NCBI GenBank assembly: GCA_963815215.1
Contig: CAWFFU010000011.1
Coordinates: forward strand, 96,001-160,000
Origin: an uncultured Trueperaceae bacterium
Lineage (GTDB): Bacteria > Deinococcota > Deinococci > Deinococcales > Trueperaceae
DNA: 64,000 bases
Reading direction: 5' to 3'
Under the pieces are notes generated by a model. That model was not told the origin of the DNA. It saw only the letters and a program-made list of their open reading frames with translations, and did not search any database. Positions within the stretch are counted from its first letter, which is position 1, and each line of letters opens with the position of its first letter. The position numbers were made by a program, and so were the translations under genes. Of the stretch, positions 1 to 12,331 are shown in pieces.

Positions 1-1097
1 ATTGTCTCCTTGTAGAGACGTTCGGCCGCGGTGAAGTCACCAAGAAACTCGTTTATAAATGCCAAGGATCTCGCTGTCTCCGGACTACGCCGTGTGCGGT
101 GAGCTCGAGTGGCCTCGCCCAACGATCGGTCGTTGAATTCCACAGCCGCACGCAAAGCCCGAAGATCAGGCGCGTCATGAGCTTCAAGATACTTGTCGAC
201 CCTTGGGAGCATTGAGCGCCACTTGTTGACCGCTATTGCACTGTTGAACATCCAATACATGAATTCCTCTTGCCTGAACATCCAACGGGGTACTTCTGAC
301 ATATATCGCCAGAATCGCTCGAACTCACCGGCTTCAAAGTAGGCGTTTCCGGCCTCGCCAAGAACCTCGGCCAACCGGGTTTGAGCGTGGTCAAAAGCAA
401 ATTCAAATGCTTCGATCCATCGCTTGCGTGCAATCAGCACGTCGATGACTCCGTTGACTCCTTCACGAAATGCGGCCCCGAGGTAGTCGCCCAAGAGACC
501 CTGATTTGACTGCGTCCTCCGATTCAGCATGAGTGCATCTTCTATAGCGCTTAGCGCTCCGCCAGCGTCCATCACGGCCCGCTGAATATCGTGCGGGTCA
601 CGCTCCAGCTCGAATAGTTCCTGAGCTTCCGCAATCGTGATTCGGAGATCAGACCCTTCGATAGGAGAGGTGACGATTGCCTCCGCTATCGAAGGAATCA
701 CTTCGCAGGCATGCAGCACGAGTAGATTGGGAGAGCGAATCGACTCGAGAAGGCGAAGGGCCAGTTGGGGAGACTCGTCAGCGTTGACAACGGCAACAGT
801 AATCGGCTCAAGGGCTGGCAGGAAGGACTCAAACACCGCAAACGCATACTCTTCACCAACCCCAAGACCGAACAAGGAGGAGCCTAGCCCGCGGCGGAGG
901 GCTTCCGACAACGCGTTTCCAACGCTCACGGAGTCGCTGCACTCAACTTCGCGCAAATCCAAGAAGACAAGGGGCTGCTCTGGGTCACGTAGGCCAACGA
1001 ACACGCGCCGGAGCCCCCACTCGTCTCCTGCGACCACGAAGACCGGCGACGGCATCTCAAGAAGAGTGCGACGTACGCGCTCGAACCACGTATTCAT
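1..1097 (-). CDS. Putative TPR-containing (MalT/BTAD-like) regulator, N-terminal part; runs off the left edge
   Basis: Not in the ORF track because no stop falls inside the window. Manual translation from ATG 1097 (SD AAGGAGG) gives MNTWFERVRRTLLEMPSPVFVVAG...LRITIAEAQELF...EAGNAYFEAGEFERFW...FLGDFTAAERLYKE, with helical TPR-like segments. Confidence 0.65.
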   Translation of the reverse strand, partial: MNTWFERVRRTLLEMPSPVFVVAGDEWGLRRVFVGLRDPEQPLVFLDLREVECSDSVSVGNALSEALRRGLGSSLFGLGVGEEYAFAVFESFLPALEPITVAVVNADESPQLALRLLESIRSPNLLVLHACEVIPSIAEAIVTSPIEGSDLRITIAEAQELFELERDPHDIQRAVMDAGGALSAIEDALMLNRRTQSNQGLLGDYLGAAFREGVNGVIDVLIARKRWIEAFEFAFDHAQTRLAEVLGEAGNAYFEAGEFERFWRYMSEVPRWMFRQEEFMYWMFNSAIAVNKWRSMLPRVDKYLEAHDAPDLRALRAAVEFNDRSLGEATRAHRTRRSPETARSLAFINEFLGDFTAAERLYKET

Positions 1098-1230
1098 CTT
1101 GCCCTCCTTGTCAACTACTCCTCCTTGCTGTAGCCCCCGTGGGTCTGGTCTGAGTCCCCAACCCCCGTACAGCAAGCCTCAACTACTTGTTCCTGATCTT
1201 CCACCTCGGCAACCATCTATGCTCAGTTCA

Positions 1231-2418
1231 ATGCCGCTCTCCCCCCAGGCACTTAGGCGTCGCGCAAAGAAGTTCCTCGTGCGGAATCAGCTCCAGCTGT
1301 TTGTCCCCGTCCTTCCTGGACTAGAGCGCCTGACGGCCGAGCAGGCGAAGTCTATTGGCCAAGAGATCCGAATCGTGCACGGCGGCATTGAGTTTCGAGG
1401 TGACCTTGCCTCAATCTATCGGGCCAATCTCGCAGTGCGGACGGGAAACCGCGTGCTCCTCCGTCTGGGTCAGTTCCTATCACAAAGCTACCCCATGCTC
1501 TACAATCACGCACGCAGGATTGACTGGCCCGCCGTTCTAGGCAATTGCCCAGACGTCAGTATTGACGTATCGGCCCGCGAGTCTCGCCTCAATCACAAGG
1601 AAGGCATTCGTCAGGCAATTCTTGACGCAATTCGCAGTTCCATGGCGGAGCACGACGTCAACACTGTTCTCGTCGATGGCGGTCCCCTCACCGTGAAGGC
1701 GAGGCTCTACCAAGACAGGTGCACGCTAAGTCTCGACACAACAGGGGAACACCTTCACAAGCGGGGATATCGAAGTCACGCAACAACTGCGCCGATCCGC
1801 GAAACAACGGCAGCTGGCATGCTTCTCCTTGCCCAATCTAAATCGTATGACGTCATAATCGATCCATTCTGTGGGTCCGGAACATTCGCAATTGAGGCCG
1901 AGCTAATCGCTAGGAACTATCCCCCCGGGATGTCCAGACGCTTCGCAATCGAGAACAGTCCTTTGCACGCGCCCGGAATGCTTCGCCACATCGGCCGGCA
2001 GCTGCTCGCGAGTGCTAGCGACCATTCCACTCAGACTGTTCTCGGCTTCGACATCTCGCCGACTGCAATACAATCAGCCAAATACAATGCCGACAAGGCC
2101 CCCACGACAGGGGTCAAGTTCGCTGTGTGCGACGCTTTGGCACTGGACTTCAGCAGTCTCCTACCCGAAGGGACGAAAGGGTTGATCGCGGCCAACCTTC
2201 CCTATGGAGTCCGGCTTGGAACGCGCACGAAGACGCAGTCCTTGGTACGAGCCTTCTGCTCGGTCGTCGCCCGAACTGCTGTGGGATGGGACTTTCTGCT
2301 GATCATGCCAGAAGCAGACCCGGTTCGCGAACCGGGTCTGCTGGTTGAGCGTACACTTTCATTTTCCAACGGAGGCATCCCGGTAGTCGCTTCGTTGGGA
2401 CGTGTGGAGCAACGGTAA
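1231..2418 (+). CDS. THUMP-domain class I SAM-dependent RNA methyltransferase (RlmL/YpsC-like)
   Basis: Motifs SLDTTGEHLHKRGYR, APIRETTAAGML, DPFCGSGT and ANLPYG. Leaderless start: TATGCT 1218-1223, 7 nt, ATG 1231. The ORF-track extension to 637 is antisense to the upstream gene. Confidence 0.85.
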   Translation: MPLSPQALRRRAKKFLVRNQLQLFVPVLPGLERLTAEQAKSIGQEIRIVHGGIEFRGDLASIYRANLAVRTGNRVLLRLGQFLSQSYPMLYNHARRIDWPAVLGNCPDVSIDVSARESRLNHKEGIRQAILDAIRSSMAEHDVNTVLVDGGPLTVKARLYQDRCTLSLDTTGEHLHKRGYRSHATTAPIRETTAAGMLLLAQSKSYDVIIDPFCGSGTFAIEAELIARNYPPGMSRRFAIENSPLHAPGMLRHIGRQLLASASDHSTQTVLGFDISPTAIQSAKYNADKAPTTGVKFAVCDALALDFSSLLPEGTKGLIAANLPYGVRLGTRTKTQSLVRAFCSVVARTAVGWDFLLIMPEADPVREPGLLVERTLSFSNGGIPVVASLGRVEQR

Positions 2419-2456
2419 CGGTTGCGCGCAGCCCGCAGTCGCAAGTGCCCCGCATA

Positions 2457-3527
2457 TCAGATCGCGAACGGCGCGACCGACTCAGCCTTGGCCGACCCGT
2501 TGACCGAAGGGCTAGCGATCGCGGTACCATACTCGACCTGGCCTGCGTCTATCAACGATTCGAAGACAGGCACGATACTCGGATCAAACTGCGTTCCTGC
2601 ACCGTTCACAACGTACCTCAGGGCCTGTCCAACAGGCATGGGGCTTCTGTAAGGCCGCAAACTGGTCAGAGCCTCAAAGACATCCGCGATAGCGATGATG
2701 CGGGACAACTTCGGAATCTCGTCTCCTCGATATCCGAGAGGGTACCCGAGCCCGTCCCATCGCTCATGATGAGCTCGAACCACGTCAGCAATTGGTCTGA
2801 AGCCCTGAGACACGGACGCCAATAGATCTGCGCCATAACCGGGATGCCGCCGGATCTCGGCAAATTCGTCTTCCGAAAGTCGACCATTCTTCATAAGGAT
2901 GTACTCGGGCACAGCAATCTTTCCAATGTCATGGAGAAGGGCGGCCCAGTAGAGCACGTCCAAATCCTCCGCGCTCAATCCCAGGGCTAGGCCGAGAGCA
3001 ACCGCGTTCTTTGCTACGCGACGAGAATGTCCTTGGGTATGATCATCGCGGACCTCAACCGTGCGCGCAAGGCTTTCGAGAACCCTGTCTCGACCGAGAC
3101 TCGACGAACCACGGTCGATGTGCTGCATGGCCGAGGATGCTTTCGGCGCATGCCGACGTCGCAAGAGCCACGCACTCGCCCCAGCAAAGGCGACATACAG
3201 CACCGCCTGTACTACCCACGGTTCGCGTACTTGCACGAATGTCGGAATTGTCGCGTCCATCGCAGCAACCAGGCCTACCCCAAGAGCAAAGGACAGCCCC
3301 CACGAGTACGCGGCTAGCAGGATTGGAATATACAGCAACTGGAGCGCGGCCAGACGAGTCGAAGGAATCACGATGGACACGATTACCAGGACCATCAGTA
3401 GCGCTAGAACACCAATTCCCTTGGCCGGCAGGCCGTTTGAGCGCATCGCCGATCCAGAATCAAGAATCGCGCGCAGCCGCGATATGGCCTTGATTGCGCT
3501 CCTCACGTTGAAGCTCCGGATCTCCAC
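2457..3527 (-). CDS. Membrane-anchored HD-GYP c-di-GMP phosphodiesterase
   Basis: About 4 N-terminal hydrophobic helices, then HTQGHSRRV, LLHDIGK, HHERWDGLGYP and IADVFEAL. Start uncertain (3580, 3527, 3506 or 3446). Confidence 0.88.
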   Translation of the reverse strand: MEIRSFNVRSAIKAISRLRAILDSGSAMRSNGLPAKGIGVLALLMVLVIVSIVIPSTRLAALQLLYIPILLAAYSWGLSFALGVGLVAAMDATIPTFVQVREPWVVQAVLYVAFAGASAWLLRRRHAPKASSAMQHIDRGSSSLGRDRVLESLARTVEVRDDHTQGHSRRVAKNAVALGLALGLSAEDLDVLYWAALLHDIGKIAVPEYILMKNGRLSEDEFAEIRRHPGYGADLLASVSQGFRPIADVVRAHHERWDGLGYPLGYRGDEIPKLSRIIAIADVFEALTSLRPYRSPMPVGQALRYVVNGAGTQFDPSIVPVFESLIDAGQVEYGTAIASPSVNGSAKAESVAPFAI

Positions 3528-3722
3528 CCCATGATTGCCAAATGCGACAACTCAGGTTTGAGGAAGACGCGTACTCCCACGGCTGACGCCTCCTTTCGGC
3601 GTAACCGCAAAGTAGCAGGGTGACGCTTATTGTCCGTATAAACGCCACCCTACACGCACGTCTGGCAAGTTCTCAATCCGTTACGGCGTGCCTACTCCTC
3701 AAGCTGAGTCAGACTGCCAAAG

Positions 3723-3824
3723 CTACCTCTTGATCATGCTCACACCAGCCGTTGCAACGAACGGCATGGCGGCAAGGGCAGCAAACACGATTGCGGCAAA
3801 GATGCGCTTCCCAGTGTTCTTCAT
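3723..3824 (-). CDS. 33-aa secreted peptide precursor MKNTGKRIFAAIVFAALAAMPFVATA-GVSMIKR (candidate signalling propeptide)
   Basis: Below the ORF-track cutoff. ATG 3824 with GGGAGG/GGGA upstream and TAG at 3723-3725. Basic n-region, hydrophobic h-region, Pro and A-x-A site, then a 7-aa tail. Confidence 0.7.
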   Translation of the reverse strand: MKNTGKRIFAAIVFAALAAMPFVATAGVSMIKR

Positions 3825-4072
3825 ATGTGGTCCCATCCTCCCGTTTGGCCTGCGAAAGGCCACAACTACCTACACAGGTCTCCCAAAGCCTGAGTAGTCG
3901 CCTGCTGGTCTCCCAACCTCGCAGACAAATGACTGGCGGTACTCCGCCACCCTACGAACTGTTTGGAGCTTGAATTAGGAGTGAACCGAACCTCTCCTAT
4001 TAGCTCCCATCTCTTCCTGCACGGCGCCCAGAGGACCCCGAATCAAGCTGGCCTCCCAACCACCTTGATATG
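3825..4072 (-). promoter_or_regulatory. Structured ~250-nt 5' leader with repeated UGGGAG hairpin loops
   Basis: Hairpins at 4042-4069, 3965-4007, 3900-3926, 3863-3900 and 3846-3862. G-U pairs work only on the minus strand. UGGGAG at 4053-4058, 4004-4009, 3910-3915 and 3880-3885. Confidence 0.6.
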
Positions 4073-4078
4073 CGTTAC

Positions 4079-4108
4079 AAGCTACCACGTTGGGCAATGT
4101 ATCGTCAA
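4079..4108 (-). promoter_or_regulatory. Sigma70-type promoter for the peptide/HD-GYP transcript
   Basis: TTGACG (4108-4103), 18 nt, TAGCTT (4084-4079), with an extended -10 TG. Confidence 0.6.
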
Positions 4109-4317
4109 CGACGCTGGCATTCATCAGGAGCTTCGACCTAGGCGTATAATGGCGCTTCCACACGGCTTTAGTGGGATGCGCCTGTGGTCAATTGCGCGCA
4201 CCTAGAGCACCGAATACATTATCGTCGCCTAGGGTAGCCTCTCGGTTCAGTAGCAGCGGGCCTCTCACCTCAGCCCTGAGGCGCACCGCGTGGGCTAGAA
4301 AGGCCCTTGGAACAACG

Positions 4318-5982
4318 ATGAGTGAATCCGTACAGATGATGGTTACTAGGAGATTCCCCGGAATCCATCTCGAAAGTGAGGTCCAGGGTTGGGTCTTCCT
4401 CGAGGAGTTCGAGAAGGGCGTGGCAAGCTACGAAGCCACTACGACGCCCACGGCCAAAGACGATCGTTGGCTTGGTGTCTGCTACTTCCAGCTCTTCCGT
4501 GATCTTGATGCACTTGAGGCATTCTATCGAGCGATCAATCGCGGTGAAGACGCAGCTCGGGTGAACGCGGCGCATCTTCTCAAGTTTGTCGAACGATCTG
4601 AGGAAGCCAAGGAAGAACTCTCGAAGGTCGACCCCGAAACTCTCTGCACGTACGACAGGGTTCTATATCATCGGGTCCTTAGCATTCATGAAGAGAACAG
4701 CGGAAATCTTCGAGATGCCCTGAATGCTGCGGAAGAGGCGTGGCGACGTGTCCAGGGCATGCCTGAGTTCGGCCTACTTGCGCCAGCAATTCTTGTTCAA
4801 TTGGCAATCCTCCACGGGCGCATTGGAAGATCCCAGAGGGCCCTATGGTTTCTCGAACGGGGGCTGCAGTTCACAGGACCACTGGAGAATCTGAAGGTCA
4901 GATTGGGGCGGGCCGCCCTACTCATCAACCTTGGTCGATATCAGGAGGCACATGCAGAGCTAGAGTCAGTCGACCTAAGCGAGGCCCCTGCTTACCAGGT
5001 CCAGCAGCGCCTCCTTCACGGGGAACTTGATTGGGCGACTGGAAATCTGGAGCGCGCGATCCAGCAGTTCACGGCAGCATCTCAATCCGCCTTCGCACTC
5101 CAGGCCACGTACGAAGAGTTCCAGTGCCGTTTGTCGCTCGCATGCATTGTGGGAGCACGGAGGGACTTCTCCGTCGCGACGGACCATATGACCCGGGCAC
5201 AAGCACTTATTACCGACCGATCGGACCGCTTGGTCTACCGGTTCCGGGAAGTGCTCTTGCTCTATTGGATGGGCACGTATAAGCCGCAACATGCTCTTGA
5301 AGAGTTTGGGGCACTGGTGGTCGAGTTTGGTGAGATGGGCCTTCTTCAGGAACAGTGCTCCGTACACCTCCACATCGCGAACATCCTGTTTGAGATGGAG
5401 CGAGATGACTACACCCAAGAGCTTGACCGCGTGCAGGCGCTCAGCGTGTCCCTGCAGAACCAGGCTTTCCTATCGAAGGAATGGACGCTGCTCCCAAGAC
5501 TTCAGAAGGCCTCCCAGAAATCGCATGCTCGGATCGCTGGTCGAAGGAACATAGTCTTCGAAGTATTCACGCTTGGCAGCGAGAGGCTCCTTCTTGCAAA
5601 ACGGCCTGTGAACATCCCACTTCGCAGAGGCGTCGAAGTCTTGGCGTTCTTCCTGGAGAACAAGGCCGTGACCCTCAAGCAACTCCTCGCAGAGGTCTTC
5701 CCCGACGACAAGCCACGGAGCGCCAAGTCCTATTTCCATCAGTTCCGCCACCAGCTGCGTGAGAACGTCGAGGGCCTCGAGATCGAGTACGACGGTGAGT
5801 CGAAGATGTACCGGCTCAAGAGCGAGATCGACATTGTCTGGGACGTGTCGGAGCTGCGGGCAGGGCGGATCATGGGCAAGACCGGGTTGTTCCTGCCTAG
5901 CTCCGGGAACGACTGGGCGCTTGCCATCGACCGCTCTCTGGACACGTACAGGGAAGCCGCCGGAGTGCTCGAGATCGCCTGA
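4318..5982 (+). CDS. TPR-repeat protein with C-terminal OmpR/SARP-type winged helix and truncated BTAD-like tail (transcriptional regulator)
   Basis: TPR-like repeats (LGVCYFQLFRDLDALEAFYRAI, LAILHGRIGRSQRALWFLERGL, RAALLINLGRYQEAHAELE, HGELDWATGNLERAIQQFTAA). C-terminal VLAFFLENKAVTLKQLLAEVFPD...KSYFHQFRHQLR...YRL and GLFLPSSGNDWA. Start approximate. Confidence 0.8.
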   Translation: MSESVQMMVTRRFPGIHLESEVQGWVFLEEFEKGVASYEATTTPTAKDDRWLGVCYFQLFRDLDALEAFYRAINRGEDAARVNAAHLLKFVERSEEAKEELSKVDPETLCTYDRVLYHRVLSIHEENSGNLRDALNAAEEAWRRVQGMPEFGLLAPAILVQLAILHGRIGRSQRALWFLERGLQFTGPLENLKVRLGRAALLINLGRYQEAHAELESVDLSEAPAYQVQQRLLHGELDWATGNLERAIQQFTAASQSAFALQATYEEFQCRLSLACIVGARRDFSVATDHMTRAQALITDRSDRLVYRFREVLLLYWMGTYKPQHALEEFGALVVEFGEMGLLQEQCSVHLHIANILFEMERDDYTQELDRVQALSVSLQNQAFLSKEWTLLPRLQKASQKSHARIAGRRNIVFEVFTLGSERLLLAKRPVNIPLRRGVEVLAFFLENKAVTLKQLLAEVFPDDKPRSAKSYFHQFRHQLRENVEGLEIEYDGESKMYRLKSEIDIVWDVSELRAGRIMGKTGLFLPSSGNDWALAIDRSLDTYREAAGVLEIA

Positions 5983-6024
5983 TGGGCTCCGGCCCTGTCG
6001 GCAGCGCTTGTGGTAAGCTCATCA

Positions 6025-6092
6025 CAACGGAAGAGACGGTGGTAGGGAGATCCCGGAGCTGCGGTTGGGAGCCACACGCTCCGGGTTTTTCT
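6025..6092 (+). ncRNA. Candidate ~65-nt small RNA or 3' element with UUGGGAG loop and intrinsic terminator
   Basis: Extended -10 TGG-TAAGCT 6011-6019. Stem CCCGGAGC 6052-6059 / GCTCCGGG 6078-6085 with TTGGGAG at the apex, then TTTTT 6086-6090. Confidence 0.45.
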
Positions 6093-6324
6093 GTCGCGGT
6101 ACCGATGGTGATGGGGCCTCCGACCGGCTCCCCGCCTGGCCCGCCACGTGACCCGGCATTGTTCTAGGCCCCAAGTCATAGGGCCCAAGGCGTCATGGCC
6201 CCGCCATACGCGCGTTCCCAATGGTTTCCCGGGGCTGCTCCTTGGCATTCGTCTTGGACGTCATCCTGAACGTCGTTGCAGCGCAATCGTCGCGCGCAGC
6301 ACGTCGACCGTCGCGCCCGGGCTA

Positions 6325-6399
6325 CGTGCCGGCTGCTGGACGGTTGCGTGCCGGCTGCGGGACGGCTGTAAGAATCCCGTAAGACGAGCTGGCTATACT
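6325..6399 (+). promoter_or_regulatory. Promoter with direct-repeat operator upstream of the candidate sRNA
   Basis: 22-bp tandem repeat 6325-6368, GTAAGA-N5-GTAAGA (6368-6373 and 6379-6384), and -10 TATACT 6394-6399. Confidence 0.5.
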
Positions 6400-6404
6400 C
6401 GCTT

Positions 6405-6493
6405 CGTGGACCTGAGGTAACTCTCCCAGTACCTCTTCCCATCTCTTCCGAAAACCGGGCTCCGCGCCTCCCACGCGGAGTCCACCCTTTTTT
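6405..6493 (+). ncRNA. Candidate ~89-nt sRNA with C-rich (CUCCCA) hairpin loops
   Basis: -10 TATACT upstream. Hairpin GAGGTAAC-[TCTCCCA]-GTACCTC 6414-6435, linker TTCCCATCTCTTCCG, 10-bp hairpin GGGCTCCGCG-[CCTCCCA]-CGCGGAGTCC 6457-6483 (G-U pair only on +), then T6 at 6488-6493. Confidence 0.6.
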
Positions 6494-6717
6494 GGCAACC
6501 CCACGATACAGGCGATCGCCTTCGCGCGCCGTAAAATCCAACGCAGAGTAGTTGTCGGTCCCCGACGCCGTGAAAGGCGTTTGGAGGGCCGGCATGGGCT
6601 GCGCAATCACCGTCACGTCGACCGCGCTTCCGTGCCGCCTTTGCTTGCAGGAGGCACCGGAATTGTGTTAGAAAAGGTAGTTGCCAGCTTAAACGAAATG
6701 AGGAGGAAGCCCCTTTC

Positions 6718-8955
6718 ATGGACGAAAAAGCAAACCCGGCCGAGGGAAGCCCTGTCCCGGCCACCGACCAAGCCCCGGAGGAAGTCACGATCCAGGCCCC
6801 ATCCGCGGCAGCTGATCAGGGAACAGGCACCGCGATGGCGAACGAAAAGGATCTCGACCCACAGGAACGGGCTCCCCAAGAAGACGCCGCAGCGGATACG
6901 ATAGAGAGCGTCGACTCCGACGCAAACGCAGTCACCGAACCGGTGGCTGATGTGCCCGTAGCGGCGCAAGCCGACAACGCGCAAGACGACAACGCGCAAG
7001 ACGACAACTCCGAGATGACGATGGAGGACGTGCTGGCTGCCAGCGATGAGCAGCTCGCGCGCAAGCCTGTCCACCGCGGCATGATCACCAACGGACAGGT
7101 CATCATGCTCTCGCAGGACGGCATCATCGTCGATGTGGGCGCGAAGATCGAGGGCATCCTGCCCTACAACCAGCTCTTCGAGTTCGAGACGAACGCCGAA
7201 GACGCTGCGAAGTACTTCAAGCCCGGCGACGAGATCCAGGTCTACGTCGTCCGCTCGGACATCCCCAACAACACCATCGTGCTCTCCAAGAAGCGGGCTG
7301 ACCAGGAACGCGCCTGGAACCTGTTGCAGGAGATCCACGACAAGGAGAAGCCGGTCGAGGTCGAGATCATCGAGAAGGTTCGCGGCGGGCTCGTCGCCAA
7401 CCTCGGGATCCGCGCCTTCCTGCCGGCCAGCCAGGTCGATGTGCGCCGGGTCAACGACCTCGCGCCCTTCGTGGGGCTGCGCCTCAAGGTCAAGATCATC
7501 GAGCTCAACCGACGCCGCAACCGCGTCATCATCTCGCGTCGGTCGATCCTCGAAGAGGAGATCGCCGAGAAGAAGTCCGAGACGCTCCAGAAGCTCGAGC
7601 CCGGTATCAAGCTCGACGGCGAGGTCGTGGAGATCACCGACTTCGGGGTGTTCGTCAACCTCGGCGGGATCGACGGCCTGGTCCACCGCAGTGAGCTCAC
7701 GCACGGGCGCTTCAGCCACCCACGCGATGTCGTCAAGGTGGGCGAGAAGGTGCGCGTCGAAGTCCTCGACATGGACCTCGAACGCGAGCGCATCAACCTG
7801 TCCATGAAGTCGCTGCTGTCGAACCCCTGGGACAACGTCCTGGCCAACTACAGCATCGGCCAGCGGATCTCGGGCAAGGTCACCAACCTCACCCCGTTCG
7901 GTGCCTTCGTGGAGATCGAACCGGGCCTCGAAGGACTCATCCACGTCAGTGAGATGAGTTGGACCAAGCGCGTGCGTCACCCCAAGGAGATCGTGACCGA
8001 GGGCGACGAGGTCGAGGCCATGATCCTCAAGGTCGACACCAGCCAGCAGCGCATCTCGCTCGGTCTCCGTCAGACCCAGCCCGATCCCTGGAGCAGCCTG
8101 CCGGACCGCTACCCTCCCGGCACCGAGGTCACCGGCCCGATCACCGGCATCACCGACTTCGGCGTGTTCATGGAGATCGAAGAGGGCATCGAGGGCCTGG
8201 TCCACATCAGCGAGCTGAGCCACGACCACATCGAGAACATCAACGACCACTTCAAGCGTGGCGACGAGGTCACCGCGGTGATCCTCAACATCGATCCGGT
8301 CGAGCAGCGCGCCAGCCTGTCGCGTAAGCGGCTCCTCCCCTTCTCTGCCACCGACCTGGAATCCGTCGGCACCGGAGCCCCCGCCTCTCGCGGCGGCGCC
8401 CGTCGCGGCGGCCGGCGCAGTCGGCGCGGCTCGGACATCGACTACGATTACAGCTACGCTTCGTCCGATGCCAGCAACAAGGCCACCACGAAGCTCGGTG
8501 ACGTCTATGCTGACCTCTTCGCCCAGTTCGGTCTGACTGACAACAAGGGCGATCAGGATGAGGACTCCAGCGGGACCGACGAGGCAACGGCCGGCGCTGC
8601 CGAAGCGGCCGAGGCCGGTGCCGAAGCTTCCGCCGACCAGGGGATCGCAGCCGACGAGCCGCAGGCCGCCGTTGAGGCGACCGACACGCAGAGCGAGCCC
8701 GTCGCCGCCGCCCCGGAGGAAGCCGCCCCGGAGGAAGCCGAGCCGGCAGCGGTGAGCGCGCAACCTGAAGTCGCCGTCGAGGCCAAGAAGGCCGATGCCG
8801 ACGAGGTCGACCCCGAGAACGCCATCGATGCAGCCGAGGCCGCGGCCATGCTCACGGCCGCCTTCCGCGAGGGCAAGCGACCCAAGGCAGAGCAGAAGGC
8901 CGAAGCCACGGTCGAAGAGGAGAAGGCGGAGGACGCCGAAACCTCGAACGCCTGA
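6718..8955 (+). CDS. rpsA: 30S ribosomal protein S1 with long acidic N- and C-terminal extensions
   Basis: Five S1 repeats ([83 protein letters not shown]). SD GAGGAGG. Confidence 0.97.
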
Positions 8956-8971
8956 TCTCGAATCCGCACTA

Positions 8972-9010
8972 CAGAAGGGGCGTCGCTCATCGCGAGCGAC
9001 GCCCCTTCTG
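8972..9010. terminator. Bidirectional hairpin between convergent rpsA and htpX
   Basis: Perfect 17-bp inverted repeat CAGAAGGGGCGTCGCTC / GAGCGACGCCCCTTCTG. Confidence 0.8.
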
Positions 9011-9096
9011 CTTGCGGTCACGCTGACGGCGCGCTGGCTCGCCCCCCTCCCGGGAACCCCAGCGCCCCGTCCCCGGTTGGGAGGCCGCAGGAGCCC

Positions 9097-10083
9097 TTAC
9101 ATCCGCCGCAGACGGTCGATTCTCTGTTGGATCGGAGGGTGGGTGGCGAACAGATCCATGCTGTTGTGGTGCGCGAGGGGATTGACGATGAACATGTGGC
9201 GCACGCCTTCGGAGACCTCCAAGTCCTCGCCCTGGTAGCCGCCGAGCTTCTCCAGCGCGCTCGCCAGCCCCTCCGGATTGCGCGTGATGTAGGCGCCGGT
9301 GGCGTCCGCCAGGAACTCACGGCGGCGACTGACGGCCAACCTCAGGATGGTCGCCAGGATCGGCCCGAGCACGAGCAAGGCGATCAGCAGGACCACCATG
9401 ATGCCCTGACCACGGTTGTTGCCCTGGCCGGACCCGCCCCCGCTACCGCGCCGGCTTCGCGATCCACCGAACGCACCGAACTGGAACCAGCGCAGCACCA
9501 GGTCGCGCAGGATCACGATGGCGCCGACGGTCGCCGCCAGCATCGACAGGAACCGGATGTCGTAGTTGCGCACGTGCGCCATCTCGTGGGCGACCACCCC
9601 CTCCAGCTCCTGCCGGTCCATCATGTCGATGAGACCTCGGGTGACCGCGATCGAGGCGTGCTGCGGGTCGCGCCCGGTGGCGAAGGCGTTGGGGGCAGGC
9701 GAGTCGATCACGTATATGTTGGGCGTCGGAACCCCTGCCCCGAGGGCGACTGCTTCGGTGACATTGACGAGATAGCGATGCTCGTCCTTGGTGGCCTTGC
9801 GGGCGCCTGCCGCGCCCAACGCGATCTGATCGCTGAACCAGTATGCCGCCACGCTCTGCCCGGCGCCGATGAACCCCGCTACCGACACGAAGAACAGCGC
9901 CGAGCCCGGATTCGTGACTTGCGCCAGAAGGTATCCGATGGCACCCAACAGCGCCACCATGATCAATCCCAGGACCCAGGACATCCTGCGATTGGACGCC
10001 TGCCAGTCGAGGAGGTTGATGCGCCTCCCGGTGGCCCTGTCAGTGATGACGTTCGGCAGGACCCCTGCGCTGCGTGACGTCAT
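9097..10083 (-). CDS. htpX: M48 zinc metalloprotease HtpX
   Basis: PNAFATGR, VVAHEMAHVRNYD, SRRREFLADA and FATHPPI motifs. Follows lemA. Confidence 0.92.
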   Translation of the reverse strand: MTSRSAGVLPNVITDRATGRRINLLDWQASNRRMSWVLGLIMVALLGAIGYLLAQVTNPGSALFFVSVAGFIGAGQSVAAYWFSDQIALGAAGARKATKDEHRYLVNVTEAVALGAGVPTPNIYVIDSPAPNAFATGRDPQHASIAVTRGLIDMMDRQELEGVVAHEMAHVRNYDIRFLSMLAATVGAIVILRDLVLRWFQFGAFGGSRSRRGSGGGSGQGNNRGQGIMVVLLIALLVLGPILATILRLAVSRRREFLADATGAYITRNPEGLASALEKLGGYQGEDLEVSEGVRHMFIVNPLAHHNSMDLFATHPPIQQRIDRLRRM

Positions 10084-10106
10084 GATGGGTCCGTCGCCGG
10101 CTCAGC

Positions 10107-10661
10107 TCAGCCCGCGAACGACACCTTCGGCGCTTCGCGCTCGGCTTCGGGGATCTCGAGGAAGACGGCCTTCTTCTTGTTCATCGGGCCCGCCATGAAC
10201 ACGCCCGGCACCGTCTCGATGGCGTTGTTGAACTGGAGCACGGCGTCGTTGTAGAACTGCCGCGCGTAGGCGATCTTGTTCTCGACGCTGGACAGTTCCT
10301 CCTGGAGCATCTTGAAGTTCTCGTTGGCCTTGAGCTCGGGGTAGTTCTCGGCGATAGCGAACAACCGACCCAGCGCACCCGTCATCTGGTTCGCGGCCTC
10401 GGCCGACTCACCCACGTTCTTCGCGTTCATGAGGGCCTGCCGCGAGTGCGCGACCTCCTCGAACACGGCCTTCTCGTGGGCGGCGTAGCCTTTGACAGTC
10501 TCTACGAGGTTGGGGATCAGGTCGACGCGTCGCTTGAGCTGAACGTCGATCTGGCTCCACGCGTTCTCGTAGCGATTCTCCAAACTGATGATCCGGTTGT
10601 AGACCCCAACCGCCGAGATCACCAGGATGGCCAGAATGACCAACACCACGATGGTCGCCAT
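10107..10661 (-). CDS. lemA: LemA family protein
   Basis: AWSQIDVQLKRRVDLIPNLVETVKGYA and ENYPELKANENF. Confidence 0.95.
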   Translation of the reverse strand: MATIVVLVILAILVISAVGVYNRIISLENRYENAWSQIDVQLKRRVDLIPNLVETVKGYAAHEKAVFEEVAHSRQALMNAKNVGESAEAANQMTGALGRLFAIAENYPELKANENFKMLQEELSSVENKIAYARQFYNDAVLQFNNAIETVPGVFMAGPMNKKKAVFLEIPEAEREAPKVSFAG

Positions 10662-10753
10662 AAGACCTCCTGGCGTTCAGTCTACTGGACAGCGCCGATT
10701 GCACAGAGCGAAAATCTACGCCGCCCCGCTGTCACGACCTGCGGCGGACGCCG

Positions 10754-11857
10754 TCAGGACGATCGACGGCGGATCACGCCGCCGCCCAGCAGACGGTCGC
10801 CCTGGTAGAGGACGGCAGACTGACCGATCGTGACCGCGAACTGCGGTTCCTCGAAATCGAGCCGGAAGCCGTCACCCGTGGCCGTCAACATCGCCGGCAC
10901 CGGCGCCTGCCGGTAGCGGACCTGAGCGTTCACCTGCCGCGGCAGCTTCGCTTCGTCCACCAGGAAGTTGCCGCGTTCCGCCGTGAGACCCGACCAGAAG
11001 CACATCTCGCGAGGGCCTACCACGACCGTGTTGTCGGCGGGGCGGAGGTCGATGACGAAGCGCTCCAGGTGCGACTTCCACAGCCCCAACCCCTTCTTCT
11101 GGCCGATCGTGTAGAACTGCACGCCGCGGTGCTCGCCGACCACCGCGTCCCCCTGGCTTGCATCCACCACCGGGCCCGGCCGTTCCCGGCTCGCGTCCTG
11201 GAGATAACCGCGGACCGTGTCCGGCACGAAGCACAGACCCGATGAGCTCTTCTTCTCTGCCGTGAGCAGACCGCGATCGGCCGCGAGCGAACGTACGTCA
11301 CGCTTGCTCAGTTCCCCGAGCGGGAACAGCAGGTATTGCAGGATGTCGCGCGGAAGCGCCCACAGGAAGTACGTCTGGTCCTTGTCGTCGTCCCGGCCCC
11401 GGTGCAGCTCGACTCCGTCGGGCCCGTCCACCCGCCGCACGTAGTGTCCGGTGGCAAGGAAGTCGCACCCCAGGACTCGCGCCCGCTCGATGAAGGCGCC
11501 GAACTTGATGTGCCGGTTGCACCACACGCACGGGTTCGGCGTCTCCCCGGCCTCGTAGGTCGGCACGAAAGGATCGACGACGATCTCCTGGAACCGGTCG
11601 CGGAAGTCGAGCAGATAGAAGGGGATGTCCACCGCGTCGGCGACACGACGGGCGTCGTACGCGGCCGCCGGGCTGCAACAAAGGTCGAAAGCGCCGCTCG
11701 GGCCCTCGTCGGGCCAGAACCGGGCCATGGTACCGACCACCTCGAAGCCCCCCTCGCGCAACAGTGCGGTGGCCACCGACGAGTCGACGCCGCCCGACAT
11801 GGCACTCAGGACCTTCGGGGCGACAGCACGCTTCGGGATGGGATCGAACCGTTCCAC
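10754..11857 (-). CDS. mnmA: tRNA 2-thiouridylase MnmA
   Basis: AMSGGVDSSV, TPNPCVWCNRHIKF, ATGHY and KDQTYFL. Confidence 0.96.
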   Translation of the reverse strand: MERFDPIPKRAVAPKVLSAMSGGVDSSVATALLREGGFEVVGTMARFWPDEGPSGAFDLCCSPAAAYDARRVADAVDIPFYLLDFRDRFQEIVVDPFVPTYEAGETPNPCVWCNRHIKFGAFIERARVLGCDFLATGHYVRRVDGPDGVELHRGRDDDKDQTYFLWALPRDILQYLLFPLGELSKRDVRSLAADRGLLTAEKKSSSGLCFVPDTVRGYLQDASRERPGPVVDASQGDAVVGEHRGVQFYTIGQKKGLGLWKSHLERFVIDLRPADNTVVVGPREMCFWSGLTAERGNFLVDEAKLPRQVNAQVRYRQAPVPAMLTATGDGFRLDFEEPQFAVTIGQSAVLYQGDRLLGGGVIRRRSS

Positions 11858-11962
11858 GGCCCATCAGTCTAGCTGACCGGCTCGCGCATGACCCGGGATG
11901 GGCGACACCCTCTTCGGGGAGCGCGGCGCACGTGCGGTAGACTGGTCCGCACGGAGGTGGAT

Positions 11963-12331
11963 GTGAAAGGCGCTCGCATCCTGCAGCTCGTCTTGGTCAT
12001 CGTGTTGGCGCTCTATCTGGTGGCGTTCAACAACGTGAACCCGGACCCCCTGACGCTGCCGCTTCTCCCCATGCTGATCCCGATGCCGCCGGTGATCGTG
12101 GTGATCGTCGCGTTGCTGGGCGGCTGGCTGGTGGGCTGGCTCCCCACCCGGATCGCGCTGTGGCGCCGAGCTCGCGAAGTCCGTCGGCTGCGCCAGCGCT
12201 TGAACGAGCTGGAGGGTGAGCACACCGCACGGGAGACCGATGCCGGCGAGCGCGCCCCCGTCATCCCGGACCGCTTCCCCGTCATCCCGGACAGGCCCCC
12301 ACAGCGCGACGAGGGAACCGAGTCGTCGTGA
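11963..12331 (+). CDS. LapA/DUF1049-like small membrane protein
   Basis: SD GGAGG then GTG. Two TM helices around AFNNVNPDPLTL, then a coiled coil and a duplicated PVIPDR. Stop overlaps the recJ start. Confidence 0.7.
   Translation: MKGARILQLVLVIVLALYLVAFNNVNPDPLTLPLLPMLIPMPPVIVVIVALLGGWLVGWLPTRIALWRRAREVRRLRQRLNELEGEHTARETDAGERAPVIPDRFPVIPDRPPQRDEGTESS

Follow-up and report, generated by a model that had tools for sequence, protein, structure and literature searches.

A conserved putative pre-peptide gene and TPR/winged-helix regulator gene in Trueperaceae, with two adjoining candidate small-RNA families

The stretch of DNA analysed here (the window) comprises 64,000 nt of contig CAWFFU010000011.1 (positions 96,001-160,000) from the GC-rich, 3.3 Mb genome of an uncultured Trueperaceae bacterium; coordinates without a contig name are window positions, and those of the features are collected in Table 1. 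Close to its start lies a gene of 33 codons with the appearance of a pre-peptide gene, divergent from the gene of a 554-aa regulator in which an N-terminal TPR superhelix is followed by a C-terminal winged helix. This conserved pair is the well-supported finding of the present work; it differs from the RRNPP peptide receptors in domain order and lacks sequence homology to them. Two short elements adjoining the pair, here named A and B, are, judging by their sequences, two new and mutually complementary small-RNA families. An earlier interpretation made from the DNA letters alone (the sequence-only reading) had joined all these parts, together with a second TPR protein and a membrane HD-GYP protein, into one cell-density or lifestyle switch with cyclic di-GMP (c-di-GMP) output. 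We propose a narrower reading, i.e. that the conserved unit is a peptide-signal/receptor cassette of the RRNPP kind, assembled from different parts and loosely coupled to a small RNA (sRNA) and its sponge-like partner, and we give it somewhat less than an even chance (about 45%).

The family-wide counts given below refer to 128 Trueperaceae genomes of 36 genera (the tally of element B includes genome G118). The related loci are 26 loci that hold a relative of the 554-aa protein, 21 of which include the upstream DNA (tblastn of the window proteins). They come from Trueperaceae, Deinococcaceae or Deinococci metagenome-assembled genomes, in agreement with the Deinococcota lineage named in the sequence-only reading.

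The small open reading frame (ORF) was found by tblastn in all 21 related loci with upstream DNA. Its 33-codon ATG frame was recovered in 20 of them, always with the same length, and the procedure used gave none for L054. The tiny signal-peptide ORF picked out by the sequence-only reading is indeed present, and it is this 33-codon form of it that is conserved. All 21 sequences of the product begin with the same nine residues (MKNTGKRIF), whereas the codons for these residues differ by synonymous changes, to the point that each of the four Gly codons and four different Arg codons are used; the small gene is therefore translated and under selection at the protein level. Its product has a basic N-terminus, a stretch of about 13 hydrophobic residues, usually a proline at about position -6, small residues at both -3 and -1 throughout the 21 sequences (as read from the alignment), and a 7-residue tail that consists of a variable three-residue middle and a mostly conserved C-terminal SQR. 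This layout suggests a Sec signal peptide followed by a 7-residue peptide that would be released, with the putative cleavage site placed by reading the sequences. A degenerate pattern of the nine invariant codons gave one match each in 43 of the 128 family genomes and no match in reversed-pattern controls. In 41 of these 43 genomes the small gene is divergent from the regulator gene on the same contig, at a distance of 320-520 nt; the two exceptions are G077, where the two genes lie on separate contigs, and G128, which has no regulator match.

Of 8 inspected loci with regulators that have diverged further, 5 also have a mini-ORF, itself diverged yet built alike. The precursors of genus g4 (L098 = G012 and L104 = G058) have 43 residues, are signal-peptide-like and are encoded divergently from the regulator gene, about 560 nt in front of it. 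Each precursor contains a 5-6-residue unit twice in tandem. This unit is GLEHR in one of the two species and GAERR in the other, the same difference being found in both copies. Beside the receptor genes of G085, G114 and G054 a simple, crude filter returned no divergent mini-ORF, which is no evidence of absence. In genus g22 of another Deinococcales family (L088, L090), the gene of a distantly related regulator (E about 1e-72) is divergent from a signal-like mini-ORF of 34-36 residues, whose N-terminus is conserved but of a different sequence and whose C-terminal tail has GAGTF at its end. Altogether, a divergent signal-like mini-ORF was seen at 2 of the 6 distant-homologue loci inspected; the same crude filter gave none at the other four, a result that again says nothing about absence.

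The regulator is present in 62 of the 128 family genomes (E<=1e-20), and homologues with E-values between 1e-20 and 1e-75 occur in three other Deinococcales families. An AlphaFold2 model based on a 20-row alignment (pLDDT 88.7) shows a TPR superhelix and, C-terminal to it, a beta-sheet, three helices and a wing. The best VIA-align match of this model is RapF-PhrF (Z 29.8, root-mean-square deviation (rmsd) 3.7, 333 aligned residues), followed by the Rap protein of phage Phi3T with its pheromone (Z 29.3), RapJ-PhrC (28.7), MalT domain III (28.5), NprR (27.8), APC subunits (about 27) and AimR (about 23). The likeness to RRNPP peptide receptors, invoked in the sequence-only reading, is thus found in the model, where the TPR domain appears most similar to peptide-bound Rap and NprR and may represent the TPR-type superhelical peptide-binding domain that is typical of RRNPP(A) receptors. 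Modelled alone, the C-terminal domain gave low confidence (pLDDT 58); its best Foldseek matches are the DNA-binding domains of SaeR, PhoP, PhoB, AdeR and AfsR (E 0.02-0.07, TM up to 0.65, rmsd about 3), and EmbR is also among the matches. These models point to a winged helix of the OmpR/PhoB type, the type that is also found in SARP regulators.

A complex of the regulator and the whole 33-residue precursor was predicted with a score of 0.57, as compared to 0.12 for the best of three controls. The runs concur in at least 53% of the contacts and the pLDDT of the partner is at least 35, and the prediction gives no interface. The mark used here is reached by 116 of 157 solved complexes and by 2 of 215 mismatched pairs, and scores of 0.60 or under at the mark belong to only 18 of the 157 solved complexes, plus both of the passing mismatches. 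The prediction lends weak support to a contact between precursor and regulator.

When the pair is set beside the RRNPP/RRNPPA pairs of Bacillota (Rap-Phr, NprR-NprX, PlcR-PapR, AimR-AimP), a number of likenesses are apparent. A cytoplasmic TPR-superhelix receptor is encoded beside a pro-peptide gene in both cases, the role of the exported pro-peptide being probably taken here by the product of the signal-peptide-like, divergent small gene. The signal in RRNPP systems is formed by the C-terminal 5-10 residues of the pro-peptide, to which the 7-residue tail would correspond. The repeated units of the g4 precursors may be likened to the 'pseudorepeated propeptides' mentioned for RRNPPA in excerpts of a published study, and within the same excerpts RRNPPA genes are described only in Firmicutes genera and their mobile elements (PMC9765709). 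The differences are equally clear. The present pair belongs to Deinococcota, its two genes diverge from a common spacer of about 450 nt, and there is no detectable sequence homology of the regulator to Rap, NprR, PlcR, PrgX, Rgg or AimR. In addition, RRNPP(A) receptors have an N-terminal XRE-type helix-turn-helix or three-helix effector domain in front of the TPRs, whereas the N-terminus of our regulator is made up of TPR helices and an OmpR/PhoB-type winged helix is found at the C-terminus. The other group that needs to be considered are the SARP/BTAD regulators (AfsR, EmbR class), which likewise combine an OmpR-type winged helix with TPR-like helical repeats. Their domain order is the reverse: SARPs begin with the winged helix-turn-helix and continue with BTAD, whereas here the TPRs come first, the winged helix is last (at about 410-515 of 554), and the Pfam BTAD domain is absent. 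We know of no paired mini-gene in SARPs.

Element B lies in the 733-nt gap between the regulator gene and rpsA and has a putative promoter and a terminator of its own. Its predicted fold consists of two hairpins with CUCCCA-type loops, joined by a pyrimidine-rich linker, and the terminator at the end; the z-score of the fold is -4.0, and none of 200 shuffled sequences was as stable. In a BLASTN comparison of the gap with 40 relatives, the B block is 75-91% identical while the flanks diverge. A covariance model of B (R1) finds matches in 92 of the 128 family genomes, in 27 of the 36 genera; in a phylum-wide sample it matched 8 of 12 Trueperaceae genomes and none of 138 genomes from three other families. 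Among 39 aligned matches 97% of the cells are paired and eight pairs are changed on both sides, a value that 0 of 500 shuffles reached, in an alignment that was fitted to the model and so favours structure. The sRNA-like element with CUCCCA loops under a direct-repeat promoter, as described in the sequence-only reading, thus stands, and it turns out to be widely conserved. A cmscan search of Rfam with window positions 1-12000 (E<=1) returned only a chance-level match to PhotoRC-I inside rpsA, and neither A nor B matched any of its families, RsaE, 6C and CcsR included. There are one to five copies of B or B-like elements per genome, in tandem in G020 and G100. Scans of window positions 1-9000 with R1 and with R2, the model of element A, gave no further significant copies with the filters off. 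Elsewhere in the same genome, a second, weaker copy (C3:870856-870931, minus strand; R1 39 bits) has three C-rich loops, a terminator and a promoter of the same GTAAGA type, and it has counterparts in most genomes of the same genus. As to its neighbours, 23 of the 62 genomes with the regulator have B downstream of it at 1 kb or less, and three more at 2.2 kb or less. The commonest gene downstream of B is rpsA, which has B within about 1.1 kb upstream in 31 of the 92 genomes with B; B accompanies rpsA at least as often as it does the regulator.

Element A shows 85-94% identity in relatives, with flanks that diverge. Its consensus fold has a single-stranded, G-rich 5' part followed by a terminator-like hairpin and a U run. 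The covariance model R2 finds it in 12 of the 128 genomes, in nine of them directly upstream of B and in three directly downstream of the regulator with B elsewhere. The 5' part of A is complementary to the linker and loop of B, and the duplex is better than expected in 5 of 5 genomes (z -4.1 to -5.2; none of 300 shuffles as good). C-rich sRNAs that mask G-rich ribosome-binding sites are known from several phyla, i.e. RsaE/RoxS in Bacillota, 6C in Actinomycetota and CcsR ('cuckoo') in Alphaproteobacteria, and RoxS has a sponge, RosA. B resembles these RNAs in being short and terminator-ended, in having C-rich loops and a linker, and in occurring sometimes in several copies, and A would be comparable to RosA as a G-rich partner complementary to C-rich motifs. 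A is thus a candidate decoy or sponge for B, and the C-rich sRNA with a complementary G-rich RNA that the sequence-only reading had envisaged seems to have a counterpart in these two neighbours. B differs from the known C-rich sRNAs in sequence, promoter class and phylum, as well as in the absence of an Rfam match, and among the genomes searched it is confined to Trueperaceae.

The divergent spacer, which contains the putative leader of the small gene, has conserved blocks that may be of interest in this respect. The GGTTGGGAG-type G-rich boxes are common to the spacer minus strand and to element A. The sequence GGTTGGGAGRCC occurs four times in the whole genome (3.3 Mb), twice of these in the spacer, while its reversed control occurs once. 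In the window and in L047 the linker of B and the pre-peptide leader can form a contiguous 14-pair helix; in L072 such a helix can be formed with the Shine-Dalgarno (SD) region, and a lineage-specific change is found there on the B side and on the leader side. The conserved SD region of the small gene is also able to pair with the linker of B. Several leaders with UGGG(A/G) loops had been proposed in the sequence-only reading; this is borne out only in part, as the G-rich boxes are found in a single leader region, the spacer minus strand, and in A, where they might lie in RNA loops. As a separate observation, a tract of about 250 nt made up almost only of G and A, with GGGAGG-type runs, lies near a contig end (C14, about 80960-81200, minus strand) and is the best non-self match in a genome-wide duplex scan with B.

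The promoter of B belongs to a class with GTAAGA direct repeats at 11-bp spacing (two to four repeats), mostly with a TAnnnT-like box 9-15 nt downstream, as judged by eye. In the genome under study 13 such sites were found with at most one mismatch, as compared to 3 control sites. The sites precede the genes of a prepilin-type protein and of a PilT/T2SSE ATPase, a further prepilin-like ORF, an ORF that by eye resembles a receiver domain, and two C-rich sRNAs, among others. The TPR/winged-helix regulator was considered as the sole binder of the GTAAGA repeats of B, and this was rejected because the motif is enriched in genomes without the regulator. Our guess is that the repeats are bound by some regulator of the OmpR/PhoB type. 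A GTAAGA-type promoter followed by a very C/U-rich leader and a 786-codon ORF is also found from C10:279779 onward on the plus strand.

Taken in order, the steps of the cassette could be as follows. The 33-codon gene would encode a Sec-type pre-peptide, from which signal peptidase would release the 7 C-terminal residues to the outside. This peptide would be re-imported, perhaps by the neighbouring Opp/Dpp-type ABC transporter, and in the cytoplasm it might bind to the TPR superhelix (Rap/NprR-like) of the divergent regulator, whose OmpR/PhoB-type winged helix would alter transcription in response, with the regulator's own divergent spacer and element A as candidate targets. A and B would be transcribed as two independent small-RNA genes, which about one in three of the regulator-bearing genomes have immediately downstream. 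We speculate that B acts as a C-rich, anti-SD-like sRNA whose single-stranded linker and loops pair with G-rich ribosome-binding regions; its pairing with the leader and SD of the pre-peptide mRNA would provide feedback on signal production, and the free 5' part of A might pair with B and serve as its decoy. Since B is under a promoter class that is common to type IV pilus genes, it would presumably also answer to another regulator.

A number of observations weigh against this reading, in its peptide half as well as in its RNA half. As regards the receptor, MalT domain III and the APC subunits score near Rap, so that a match in fold is by itself not enough to identify a peptide receptor. A phmmer search of the PDB with the regulator gave no match at E<=1, a profile search (hmmsearch) gave only generic TPR proteins at E>=0.059, and Pfam gave generic TPR models and NNH6 only, with no RRNPP family. 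The nearest named atlas clusters are BTAD/SARP-type regulators from Deinococcota, Actinomycetota and Chloroflexota, and the predicted complex passes weakly. As regards the precursor, its invariant nine-residue N-terminus is more than a plain signal peptide needs and would suit a small membrane protein with a specific cytoplasmic partner. The 33-residue product could in fact be a small single-pass membrane protein, the invariant cytoplasmic N-terminus of which is held by the TPR domain so that the regulator is tethered or modulated, with the sRNAs as unrelated neighbours. TPR domains commonly bind short terminal peptides, and small-protein modulators and anti-activators are known to act on regulators. 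It fits such a protein that the nine residues do not vary across receptors that are only 52-73% identical, that the length is fixed (33 codons in 20 of 20 frames), that a hydrophobic stretch of about 21 residues could span the membrane, and that the predicted complex passes weakly and without an interface. It does not fit that all 21 sequences have a textbook C-region for signal peptidase (Pro near -6, small residues at -3 and -1) and that the extracytoplasmic tail is the most variable part, and the longer g4 tails with their two concertedly changing units suit a released peptide rather than an anchor. On balance, a membrane protein of this kind seems quite unlikely to us.

As regards the RNA half, B is only modestly more complementary to the SD region than shuffled sequences are (z -1.3 to -2.5), and 13-mers complementary to the non-terminator part of B were seen four times genome-wide, where by our own estimate roughly four are expected. 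The duplexes of B with the cognate leader have a mean of -38.6 kcal/mol against -36.4 kcal/mol for the non-cognate ones, the cognate B ranking 1-4 of 8. In a seeded genome-wide RNAduplex scan with B (5595 windows) the leader ranks 55, the SD region 121 and A 292, and they are outranked by GC- or G-rich tracts; because the genome is GC-rich, raw duplex energy cannot pick out the partners of B. Weak R1 matches are present on the spacer plus strand in two relatives (L050, L057), and since this strand resembles B itself, the likeness may be due to paralogy rather than to pairing. Enrichment of the GTAAGA motif is seen in almost every family genome, also in genera that lack the regulator: genus g28 has 45-51 sites as against 6 control sites and the regulator in 0 of 3 genomes, and the B of g15 retains the motif without a regulator. 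Finally, B is adjacent to rpsA also where the regulator is far away (G012) or undetected (G041). It might thus be argued that the pre-peptide/regulator pair is one thing, and that A and B are another, namely parts of a family-wide C-rich sRNA system and of a GTAAGA-repeat regulon concerned with pili and lifestyle, whose placement next to rpsA is tied to translation, e.g. as an anti-SD mimic or a pyrimidine-rich RNA that binds S1. The presence of several B copies per genome, one of them on C3 with a similar promoter, agrees with this, and so do the prepilin, PilT-type ATPase and receiver-domain-like ORFs that share the promoter class with B, the enrichment of the motif without the regulator, the 31 genomes of 92 with B beside rpsA, and genera g35 and g32, which have the regulator beside rpsA and B elsewhere. 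Three observations speak for a link between the two: B or an A-like element comes directly after the regulator in g1, g6, g7, g10, g11, g12, g16, g25, g26, g34 and g38; the pre-peptide leader contains the G-rich boxes of A and a 13-14-nt match to the linker of B; and in L072 both the B side and the leader side have changed. We regard full independence as rather unlikely. That B is a cis-acting leader or attenuator of rpsA instead of a trans-acting sRNA is far less probable still. In the 31 genomes rpsA follows B at 220-1000 nt on the same strand, and the pyrimidine-rich linker of B is reminiscent of S1-binding RNA, yet B ends in a strong terminator with covarying stem pairs, a separate conserved block with a promoter-like box (by eye) is found just upstream of the rpsA start, and there are B copies away from rpsA as well as the tandem copies of G020 and G100.

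The single integrated circuit with c-di-GMP output is not borne out in the form in which it had been put forward, as the promoter of B is not specific to this locus or to the regulator and B occurs beside rpsA also without a nearby or detectable regulator. The synteny comparison suggested along with it gave a mixed result: the small gene and the regulator stay together (41 of 43) and B is near the regulator in 23 of 62 genomes, but the HD-GYP gene is not kept and some genomes have B beside rpsA with the regulator far away or undetected. A wider formulation of the cassette, which we consider unlikely as a whole, is that Trueperaceae and, through the distant homologues, other Deinococcales use an undescribed family of pheromone receptors with Sec-exported mini-precursors, and that in many lineages the B/A pair feeds back on the translation of the pheromone, thereby linking cell density to the GTAAGA regulon (type IV pili) and to S1. 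In the titles and opening lines of abstracts retrieved for RRNPP or peptide pheromones in Deinococcus or Deinococci and for quorum sensing in Truepera there was nothing on peptide receptors, and those retrieved for C-rich small RNAs in Deinococcus gave nothing relevant. Should the wider formulation hold, quorum sensing in the style of RRNPP would extend beyond Bacillota and include a layer of RNA regulation. A receptor and pro-peptide conserved in Deinococcota, the receptor having another kind of DNA-binding module, would suggest that the RRNPP logic is older or has evolved more than once, and short synthetic peptides would provide testable ligands in a poorly studied, stress-resistant phylum. 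A and B would be two uncatalogued, mutually complementary RNA families and possibly a natural sRNA/decoy pair beside rpsA, and the GTAAGA-repeat promoter class points to a candidate regulon that includes pilus genes.

Table 1. Features of the locus and GTAAGA-repeat sites of the genome (window positions unless a contig is named)
Feature	Position	Strand	Remarks
Small gene, 33 codons, candidate pre-peptide	3723..3824	-	signal-peptide-like; conserved form of longer ORF 3723-3863
Regulator, 554 aa	4318..5982	+	N-terminal TPR superhelix (about 1-400), C-terminal OmpR/PhoB-type winged helix (about 410-515), from models
Divergent spacer, small gene to regulator	3825..4317	.	493 nt here, 321-498 nt in relatives; conserved blocks (14-spacer alignment)
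SD region of small gene	within 3825..4317	-	conserved block in spacer
Three GGTTGGGAG-type G-rich boxes	about 3879-3890, 3907-3918, 4050-4061	-	14-spacer alignment
Stretch of 13-14 nt complementary to B linker	4005-4017	-	exact 13-mer; helix lengths
Extended -10-like TGnTAnnCT	about 4080-4088	-	spacer
TATAAT box	about 4144-4149	+	spacer
Element A	6009..6092	+	extended -10-like box (6009-6019); G-rich RNA of about 68 nt (about 6025-6092)
Element B	6368..6496	+	direct repeat, -10 box, C-rich sRNA of about 90 nt (RNA 6405-6495)
B promoter, GTAAGA-N5-GTAAGA	6368-6384	+	exact repeat
B promoter, TATACT	6394-6399	+	-10 box
B intrinsic terminator	6457-6493	+	10-pair stem and U run
GTAAGA-repeat sites	6368-6384; C3:356037-356064, C3:480887-480903, C3:613973-613989, C10:123865-123881, C10:266094-266110; others		
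TPR1, N-terminal 366 aa of an 825-aa TPR protein	3..1100	-	ORF extends past window start
RlmL/THUMP-type RNA methyltransferase	about 1240..2418	+	Pfam UPF0020 3.5e-34, RlmL_1st 2.6e-15, THUMP 1.3e-5; not among the parts named in the sequence-only reading
Membrane HD-GYP phosphodiesterase-type protein	2457..3527	-	Pfam HD_5 (PF13487) 6.4e-39, HD 3e-22
rpsA, ribosomal protein S1	6718..8955	+	Pfam S1 3.6e-76, 5 stretches

Of the remaining genes around the pair, the HD-GYP gene had been assigned the output of the circuit. The membrane HD-GYP protein itself is present as claimed: its HD_5-type HD domain together with a GYP motif would place it in the HD-GYP family, NCBIfam gives a partial match to a c-di-GMP phosphodiesterase family, and the GYP motif and a hydrophobic N-terminus were read by eye in the translation. 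Because its gene is found in only 5 of the 21 related loci, a c-di-GMP output falls outside the conserved unit. The methyltransferase gene is found in 4 of the 21, both genes being limited to close relatives, and from this distribution the two appear to be local insertions, i.e. bystanders outside the conserved unit.

The second of the two TPR-type regulators proposed in the sequence-only reading is TPR1, and here only the TPR part of the claim held, while for the regulator described above both parts did. At full length TPR1 has 825 aa (L081:4623-7100, minus strand). Its Pfam content consists solely of TPR repeats (TPR_12/TPR_2/TPR_19, residues 342-600), and a C-terminal BTAD match is weak and under the cut-off (E 0.014, 16.1 bits as against 22.1), so TPR1 is at most a putative regulator. 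BLASTP showed no significant similarity between TPR1 and the 554-aa regulator. TPR1 adjoins the cassette in 13 of the 21 related loci (tblastn). Beside it, upstream of the window (L081:1-4471 = C11:90001-94471), lie the genes of an Opp/Dpp-type ABC transporter, i.e. SBP_bac_5 and two permeases, and of a 185-aa regulator of the LuxR/GerE type. The SBP_bac_5 and the two permease genes adjoin the cassette in 6 of the 21 loci, which belong to two groups, and the LuxR-type gene recurs in nine related loci, within about 500 nt of the small gene in L051, L062 and L068. On the other side of the cassette, the ribosomal protein S1 encoded by rpsA (745 aa) has long, acidic, low-complexity N- and C-terminal extensions that flank its five S1 domains.

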